Source: Escherichia coli (lineage in GTDB: Bacteria > Pseudomonadota > Gammaproteobacteria > Enterobacterales > Enterobacteriaceae). Taken from it: DNA of 677 nt. The notes under the pieces are model-generated. The model was not told where the DNA came from and made no database searches. It saw only the letters and a list, made by a program, of their open reading frames with translations. Location of the stretch: assembly GCF_003334335.1 (NCBI RefSeq), contig NZ_QOWQ01000162.1; one strand, given 5' to 3'. Shown here piece by piece: positions 1 through 677 of this stretch (position 1 is its first letter; every line of letters begins with the position of its first letter). A program made the translations under genes and the position numbers.

Positions 1-677
1 GAACGGGTGAAACCACGCCAGTTCTGTTCGCTGCCGGTCAGCATCGCTGCCATATTCTGTGCAATACCGTCAAAGGTCTGCGTGGCCGCGTTTTTAACCT
101 GCGAAAAACTGTCCGTCGCACTTTCCGCCCACTCGCCCCAGCCGGACTTCATCCCGGCCATCCAGCTTCCACGAAGCTGCTCCTCCGCAGACCAGGTGTT
201 CTTCAGTGCAGATGTGGCCTTCGCCAGCGCAGCCGGATTATCACCGTACACGTCACGAAGGCGCTGCTCTTCCGACTCCCGCTGCGCCTGACGGTCGGTG
301 AGGCCGCGGGCTTTTGCGCTGATTGCCGCCTGCTTCGCGCTCTGCTGCTGTTCAAACCGCGCCGCCTGCTGTGCCAGCTCATTCAGCCGCTTCTGGTGTT
401 CAACCTTGTCGCCCAGCTCAGCCAGCTGGCGTTTGTACTCCAGCGTCTCTTTCTCATGGGCCAGCAGGGATTTTTCCTGCTCAGATAACTGCCGTTTCGT
501 GGCGGCCTCTTTCAGGACCACATACTGATTTTCCGCTTTCCATAAATCCCGGCGCTGCTGGCTGATTTTCTCATTCACACCGCTGTGTTTTTCCAGCGTC
601 CTGAGCTCGGTTTCAAGCGCCAGCATGGCTGCATGCGCCCGGTCTTCCTGGCGCTCACCGGCAGACACCTTCACACC
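1..677 (-). CDS. H: Phage tail tape measure protein, lambda gpH-like; internal fragment, partial at both ends (codons occupy 677..3, the two bases at 2..1 belong to the next codon)
   Basis: Seen in sequence: the minus-strand frame beginning at 677 is open across the whole window (225 codons, no stop). It translates to GVKVSAGERQEDRAHAAMLALETELRTLEKHSGVNEKISQQRRDLWKAENQYVVLKEAATKRQLSEQEKSLLAHEKETLEYKRQLAELGDKVEHQKRLNELAQQAARFEQQQSAKQAAISAKARGLTDRQAQRESEEQRLRDVYGDNPAALAKATSALKNTWSAEEQLRGSWMAGMKSGWGEWAESATDSFSQVKNAATQTFDGIAQNMAAMLTGSEQNWRGFTR. Composition is E/K/Q/R/L/A-rich, as expected for a coiled-coil ruler. Established knowledge (recalled, not searched): this matches the central region of lambda gpH, with blocks such as SQQRRDLWKAE, LRTLEKH, RGLTDRQA and TQTFDGIAQNMAAMLTGSEQNWR apparently conserved. 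The ORF track omits this frame, presumably because it has no stop in the window and so is not a closed ORF. Confidence 0.9.
3..110 (-). other. Conserved Trp/Gly-containing block of the tape measure protein, lying just N-terminal of where the hydrophobic segment would be expected (outside the window)
   Basis: Seen in sequence: the translation changes character from charged helix to WMAGMKSGWGEWAESATDSFSQVKNAATQTFDGIAQNMAAMLTGSEQNWRGFTR. Recalled knowledge: in lambda gpH the equivalent block is followed by a hydrophobic Gly/Ala/Ile/Val-rich stretch, which would lie beyond coordinate 1 here. Confidence 0.5.
228..623 (-). other. Predicted alpha-helical coiled-coil segment of the tape measure protein (approximately residues 19-150 of the translated fragment)
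   Basis: Seen in sequence: a long run dominated by Glu, Lys, Gln, Arg, Leu and Ala with few Pro or Gly (e.g. LALETELRTLEKH, LLAHEKETLEYKRQLAELGDKVEHQKRLNELAQQAARFEQQQSAKQAAISAKA). Established knowledge: tape measure proteins are largely extended helical rulers. Boundaries are approximate and no coiled-coil predictor was run. Confidence 0.6.

Follow-up and report, generated by a model that had tools for sequence, protein, structure and literature searches.

The 677-nucleotide stretch of Escherichia coli DNA analysed here, to which we refer as the window, encodes with hardly any room for doubt residues 462 to 686 of the lambda-family tail tape measure protein (gpH) of an E. coli lambdoid phage or prophage, and the block flagged in an initial annotation forms the central third of the domain Tape_meas_lam_C (PF09718 / TIGR01541) of this protein. 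The observation made in that annotation is real in substance, mislabelled as "Trp-rich" and already known, since the block lies in the middle of a catalogued domain and the protein itself is well known. The features to which the text refers are the following (aa denotes residues of the protein fragment encoded by the window).

Positions 3 to 677, minus strand: internal fragment of a lambda-family tail tape measure gene, corresponding to PhiR12_1 H 462-686 and lambda gpH 458-682
Positions 201 to 677, minus strand: charged helical "ruler" part, aa 1-159, with 35% charged residues
Positions 438 to 647, minus strand: weak match to Pfam TMP_4 (PF24622), aa 11-80, E = 6e-4
Positions 129 to 194, minus strand: Trp cluster with four Trp, TWSAEEQLRGSWMAGMKSGWGEW, aa 162-183
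Positions 6 to 170, minus strand: the part of PF09718 Tape_meas_lam_C inside the window, aa 170-224, model positions 1-55 of 76, E = 8.6e-14
Positions 3 to 110, minus strand: flagged block, aa 190-225, corresponding to lambda gpH 647-682, sequence SFSQVKNAATQTFDGIAQNMAAMLTGSEQNWRGFTR
Positions 15 to 83, minus strand: peptide named in the initial annotation, TQTFDGIAQNMAAMLTGSEQNWR, aa 199-221, identical to lambda gpH 656-678

One frame of the minus strand runs through all 677 bases of the window without a stop, which amounts to 225 codons open at both ends, and the other two minus-strand frames contain many stops. The DNA is 99.0% identical to a gene of Escherichia phage PhiR12_1 annotated as "tail length tape-measure protein H"; prophage genes of several E. 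coli chromosomes reach 99.3%. Compared with residues 462-686 of the 857-aa PhiR12_1 H, the numbering of which is used below with the prefix H, the encoded protein shows three substitutions. Identity to lambda H is 76.1% at the DNA level if calculated codon by codon (76.8% over the BLAST alignment) and 76% between the window protein and lambda gpH 458-682. The NCBIfam profile TIGR01541 (tape_meas_lam_C) is matched by aa 15-225 on profile positions 2-201 of 332 with a score of 184.1 bits, compared with a curated cutoff of 104.75, and PHROG tape-measure families match the protein as well. Relatives at 96-100% identity, which carry an N-terminal TMP_2 domain (PF06791) in addition to PF09718, consist of 856-859 aa, except for one at 96% with 908 aa. 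While the window is too short to show gene order, the tail operon in PhiR12_1 (99.0% DNA identity) and in E. coli STEC17-183 (99.3%) has the canonical lambda order Z-U-V-G-T-H-M-L-K-I-J, so that in this siphophage operon gene H has the chaperone genes G and T on one side and the tip genes M and L on the other. The assignment to a lambda gpH-type tape measure protein made in the initial annotation is thus supported by DNA identity, by the profile matches to TIGR01541 and PF09718, by operon order in the relatives and by a collinear alignment. Indeed, lambda gpH (853 aa; PDB 8iyk chain H) is collinear along its full length with the 99%-identical relative and shares its operon position. The window represents, however, a distinct allele with about 24% DNA divergence from lambda, the differences falling mostly into the coiled coil. 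We would like to mention that GenBank MW057783.1 (Campylobacter phage CJLB-4) and the protein P0176 (named Enterococcus faecalis) contain a lambda-type H at lambda-level identity despite their non-enterobacterial host attribution, which is likely due to contamination or mislabelling.

A non-coding cause of the conserved stretch was considered and rejected. A search of the window against Rfam returned nothing at E <= 1, promoter-like sites, direct repeats and inverted repeats were sought in the window and not found, and the three terminator-like hairpins which are present antisense to the tape measure gene (1.0 +/- 1.3 expected) all lie outside nt 3-110. A plus-strand open reading frame of 94 codons (nt 7-291, GTG-initiated) was treated as spurious since the gene to which it runs antisense has strong family matches; most likely, it is a by-product of the GC-rich coding strand opposite.

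As had been claimed, the block is located at the end of the charged helix. The fraction of charged residues decreases stepwise from 35% in the coiled coil to 23% in the Trp cluster, 14% in the block and 8% in the next helix, and finally reaches 0% in the Gly/Ala stretch. The description of nt 3-110 as Trp-rich is wrong, as the block harbours a single Trp (W220, nt 18-20); the real Trp-rich element is the Trp cluster at nt 129-194. Within the family this cluster follows the motif [DN]WxxGxxxG[WF]x[ED][YFW], and among 91 relatives Trp is found at the position of H W633 in 82 sequences and Gly at that of G636 in 90. The coiled coil preceding the cluster is no uniform spacer and contains the weak TMP_4 match. 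The DNA of the distant phages mEp043, mEp213 and Klebsiella Kp4865-4 matches the window only at nt ~320-566 and not in the flagged block.

The block had been described as the best-conserved stretch of the window, a claim which, among distant relatives, holds against the coiled coil though not against the two neighbouring elements. The longest run within the window which is identical to lambda gpH comprises 25 residues (aa 197-221), and the block as a whole matches lambda at 33 of 36 positions, compared with 73% identity in the coiled coil; the only differences are F652/M, N657/S and G683/S. With respect to lambda alone the evidence is borderline, since an identical run of at least 25 residues is obtained by simulation at 76% background identity with P = 0.057. 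Comparison of the whole gene with lambda reveals that the block begins a long well-conserved zone (H 637-786) and that several N-terminal stretches are equally conserved. Similarly borderline is the count of variable sites in ten lambda-clade tape measure proteins, the genes of which were taken from phage records: 8 of 36 positions vary in the block and 59 of 159 in the coiled coil (Fisher P = 0.06). A set of 108 near-identical proteins (96-100% identity) is uninformative in this respect, with 9 of 36 block sites variable, mostly as singletons.

A clearer result is obtained from distant relatives. A search covering 1.84 billion cluster representatives produced 4707 hits (E <= 0.001). From these, 91 full-length sequences with about 30-50% identity were taken, and column conservation was scored by Jensen-Shannon divergence (JSD). 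The mean JSD amounts to 0.456 in the block and to 0.332 in the coiled coil (Mann-Whitney P = 4e-8), and the same order results from a BLOSUM sum-of-pairs score (P = 3e-4) and from pairwise identity (P = 3e-3). In addition, the block is nearly gapless in this alignment (gap fraction 0.002). Scoring across an alignment of tape measure proteins, as had been suggested for checking the claim, hence places the block above the coiled coil, which fits the proposed constraint beyond simple length measurement. Yet, the block does not exceed its direct neighbours, i.e. the Trp cluster (JSD 0.448) and the following helix H 687-710 (0.456), and it is less conserved than H 736-790 (0.566), which lies outside the window. 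The best-conserved motif of the family, PhiR12_1 H 740-786 (L001:4835-4975; JSD 0.566, pN/pS 0.05 in the lambda clade), is likewise found beyond the window and falls in the C-terminal fragment behind the presumed gpH cut.

The three equally conserved elements coincide with a known domain. PF09718 consists of the Trp cluster, the block and the following helix, so that the block is the centre of a catalogued domain (PF09718 / TIGR01541) and its conservation is no new observation. While 55 model positions are contained in the window, the remaining 21 lie beyond nt 1; in a 99%-identical full-length relative the full domain is found at H 631-705 (E = 3.3e-22). Judged from the alignments, the module bears the marks of a self-contained unit. 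Its three elements are conserved to the same degree and flanked by less conserved sequence on either side (JSD 0.332 and 0.205), the block is gapless, and PF09718 is matched by 44 of 44 aligned relatives. A tandem triplication is known, and two different, unrelated C-terminal modules follow it (70 and 9 of 92 sequences). Finally, its distance from the C-terminus is nearly fixed (median 150 residues, range 67-185). Each of the 91 sequences contains one copy per protein, no second copy being found elsewhere in these lambda-type proteins. The triplication is observed in PDB 25vf chain 5, a tape measure protein of 612 aa to which its depositors gave the name Tape_meas_lam_C. It harbours three tandem copies of the module instead of one (residues 74-181, 194-325 and 378-550), each with W..W..Y, TTGK.S...F and a hydrophobic helix, and its C-terminal module is of a different type (GPEAIMPL); a literature search for a paper describing this entry found none. 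A true homologue over the region is gp38 of phage T1 (PDB 9l9p chain B, 957 aa), which shows the consensus form ...LTTGKANFEDFAKNII... followed by a hydrophobic helix. It differs in originating from a virulent T1-like phage, in its identity of about 35-40% and in that only residues 921-956 are resolved, which do not cover the module.

Among phage records the module is present in 521 genomes, the identities of which are distributed bimodally: 146 records show at least 80% identity, 375 less than 60%, and none falls between 60% and 80%. The records below 60% include T1-like, HK022-like, Klebsiella, Pectobacterium and Cronobacter phages. Across the block the family consensus reads ...F.G[ML]S..LT.LVTTGKASFKDF[TA].SIL..., from which the lambda clade deviates as a divergent subtype at the turn. 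TGSEQNWRGF replaces the TTGKASFKDF of the family at the best-conserved columns there, aa 214-221 (nt 15-38) reading TGSEQNWR where TTGKASFK prevails in the family. The window, with 55 of the 76 model positions, scores above the curated thresholds of PF09718 / TIGR01541.

An AlphaFold2 monomer model calculated from a 44-sequence alignment predicts three helices, H 609-648, H 652-675 and H 680-709, the last two being separated by a break at 676-679. The model attains a pLDDT above 90 as far as roughly residue 640 but only 65-72, a moderate confidence, within the block; its pTM is 0.35. In support of the second helix, the family-mean hydropathy over H 652-675 is periodic with 3.6-3.8 residues (permutation P < 0.0005). 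The block is accordingly predicted to consist of an amphipathic helix (H 652-675), a four-residue turn (676-679), which reads TGSE here and TTGK in the majority of relatives, and the first residues of the next helix (NWRGFTR...). The hydrophobic seam of the block helix, formed by positions 651/655/658/662-663/666/670/673-674, is conserved, and its polar face is uncharged. In partly shown and partly predicted form, the domain therewith comprises, in this order, the aromatic helix end with the Trp cluster, the amphipathic helix of the block, the conserved four-residue turn and the helix H 680-709, which changes from amphipathic to hydrophobic. A fold search of the model against the PDB returned no match (best E = 1.3), as expected for long helices, and weak profile hits to apolipoprotein A-I (E about 0.2) were dismissed as reflecting amphipathic-helix composition rather than homology. 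Solved structures of lambda resolve only gpH 818-849 and those of T1 only gp38 921-956, none of them covering the block region.

In the 99%-identical full-length relatives the window end continues directly into SVLSMLTEIFLKQAMVGIVGSIGGAIGGAFGGGASAS..., and the sequence beyond the window in such a relative reads SVLSMLTEIFLKQAMVGIVGSIGGAIGGAFGGGASASTGTAIQAAAANFHFATGG... Extension below coordinate 1 combined with hydropathy analysis hence shows that in these relatives a hydrophobic segment follows the block, the opposite of the refuting outcome which the initial annotation had named for this point. The "hydrophobic Gly/Ala-rich segment" of the initial annotation, however, is in fact two things, namely a conserved helix (H 687-710) and a variable Gly/Ala/Ser linker (H 711-735), which is the least conserved and most gap-rich part of the region (JSD 0.205). 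The former is, within the family, a hydrophobic helix interrupted by a polar stripe (K690/E694/K698). Its Kyte-Doolittle peak over 19 residues (1.49) remains below the usual transmembrane threshold of 1.6, and among the relatives the median is 1.39, with 22% reaching 1.6 and 78% staying below. More membrane-like is an N-terminal segment near residue 120, for which 70% of relatives reach 1.6. This agrees with the Ur-lambda study, in which the transmembrane prediction for lambda gpH 691-712 is regarded as "much less confident" than that for 116-140 (PMC12617516). What is known about a role of the segment in DNA transit was overstated: the literature implicates gpH* as a whole in channel formation and offers for residues 691-712 themselves only this weak transmembrane prediction (PMC12617516).

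Cleavage of gpH in a glycine-rich region yields a C-terminal fragment and gpH*, for which a mass of 78-79 kDa is reported; after its ejection, gpH* makes up a periplasmic DNA channel (PMC12617516). Older work on gpH* as a whole, cited in the same study, found it to become protease-resistant in liposomes (PMC12617516). During injection gpH* is close to ManYZ. The known ManYZ-bypass mutation in gpH is A304V, which is far from the block, and a literature search for gpH residues contacting ManYZ or chaperones yielded A304V alone, papers on host-range mutants giving no positions. Comparison of masses computed for lambda gpH with the 78-79 kDa of gpH* places the cut at ~710-730 in the variable linker, so that cleavage probably occurs within the Gly/Ala/Ser sequence. 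With a cut at this site the PF09718 module would become the C-terminal end of mature gpH*, nearest to the tail tip.

On these grounds we tentatively propose, at somewhat less than even confidence, that the block, as an amphipathic helix with a turn, forms part of the leading end of mature gpH* and serves membrane insertion or channel formation. In the virion the seam of the block helix would pack against the following hydrophobic helix or against neighbouring chains and so keep the hydrophobic helix soluble in the tail lumen. Upon opening of the tip the module end would exit first, and a rearrangement of the helices would enable the hydrophobic helix to engage the host membrane and to help build the trans-envelope DNA channel. 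The block would thereby act as packing partner and hinge for the following helix and be constrained by packing and by the switch rather than by length measurement. A precedent may be seen in the tape measure protein pb2 of phage T5, which combines a coiled-coil ruler, a hydrophobic stretch and a processing cut just past this stretch; its mature C-terminal end is expelled first, anchors at the opened tip and has been proposed to form a membrane channel, and for the hydrophobic stretch insertion into the outer membrane has been proposed (PMC10038345). Unlike lambda gpH, however, pb2 possesses a C-terminal peptidase domain and a hydrophobic stretch of 46 residues, which would suffice for two membrane helices, and no sequence similarity to pb2 was detected in this analysis. 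Several points count against the membrane mechanism: the helix is sub-threshold in 78% of relatives, A304V is distant, and the lambda-clade pN/pS of the block is essentially no lower than that of the coiled coil. Moreover, TP901-1 remained largely infective after deletion of one hydrophobic tape measure region, for which chaperone binding was the role preferred by the authors (PMC5099701). Taken together, the explanation which joins the identity of the protein and the anatomy of its domain to this mechanism of membrane engagement appears to be the best one overall, and we consider it about evenly balanced between right and wrong.

Part of the similarity to lambda has another origin. It might be assumed that the 3' part of H matches lambda chiefly through recent common descent, by way of lambdoid mosaic recombination, with no special constraint in the lambda clade. 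Within this clade synonymous divergence (pS) is also lower in H 651-710 (0.26 vs 0.46), and pN/pS hardly differs between block and coiled coil (0.24 vs 0.27). As the extra similarity is accompanied by a lower pS, part of it is attributable to mosaic history rather than to stronger selection, and the borderline outcome of the run-length and variable-site tests is in line with this. Three phages (Stx phages and ASU11) possess tape measure genes of 881 aa with an unrelated N-terminus (MAGNFADLTA...) and the C-terminal half in common with the lambda clade, a pattern which, on sequence grounds, we read as a clear mosaic junction inside gene H, and which indicates that mosaic history contributes to the near-identity with lambda. 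In the H region of Stx2a_JNE090279 the open frame over the match comprises only 522 codons and has an unrelated start sequence, which could result from a frameshift or from an assembly error, or could represent a different N-terminal module. As the main reason for the match, recombination nevertheless seems improbable to us. The 91 relatives, at 30-50% identity and thus beyond close-kin recombination, show the block above the coiled coil, and the DNA encoding the nt 15-83 peptide differs from that of lambda by five synonymous and no nonsynonymous changes. As a complete explanation recombination is refuted by the deep alignment; it remains a contributor to the near-identity with lambda.

Two further readings accept the constraint on the block and ascribe it to other functions. 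One of them, which we regard as rather unlikely, is that the module serves assembly with no role in membrane insertion, either by docking the gpG/gpGT chaperones, the gpM ring or the first gpV ring, or by setting the register of the six (or three) chains near the tip. It is favoured by the near-fixed distance of the module from the tip-anchored C-terminus, by the heptad-like character of the hydrophobic seam, which suits chain-chain packing, by ordered sixfold gpH* density which is confined to the distal 29 nm of the tube beside the tip (PMC12617516), and by the chaperone-binding role which the TP901-1 authors suggested for hydrophobic tape measure regions (PMC5099701). On the other hand, we found no chaperone or gpM contacts mapped to the module region, the three module copies in PDB 25vf chain 5 are not easily reconciled with one docking site whose axial position is fixed, and gpH* is protease-resistant in liposomes and channel-forming (PMC12617516), so that some part of it must engage membranes. 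According to the other, which we consider very improbable, the block and the following helix are recognised, or correctly presented, when gpH is cleaved to gpH* within the Gly-rich linker next to them. The mass of gpH* does put this cut some 30-50 residues past the block, and the T5 tape measure is likewise cut just after its hydrophobic stretch (PMC10038345). Yet cleavage has been shown only for lambda and T5 (PMC12617516), while the module is kept in hundreds of phages including T1-like and HK022-like ones, and the linker expected to hold the cut site is the least conserved part.

Returning to the membrane-engagement reading, a more far-reaching version of it would regard PF09718 as a reusable "masked membrane anchor", in which the block helix would shield a pore-lining helix within the lumen and release it on ejection, resembling the fusion-peptide switch of enveloped viruses; the turn TGSEQNW of the lambda clade, in place of TTGKASF, might then represent an adaptation to an inner-membrane partner such as ManYZ. 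This idea, to which we attach a low probability, draws on the module being independent, repeated in one relative and located at the end of mature gpH*, and on the bimodal identity among phage records.

As gene, family and conserved domain are already present in Pfam, NCBIfam and the GenBank annotation, the sequence feature itself adds nothing new. The Ur-lambda cryo-ET study and the SNIPE study, however, bring the membrane end of the tape measure into current focus, and the predicted anatomy of the module would provide a defined target for mutagenesis, namely the putative amphipathic helix of lambda gpH (648-671), the turn (672-675) and the following helix (676-705).
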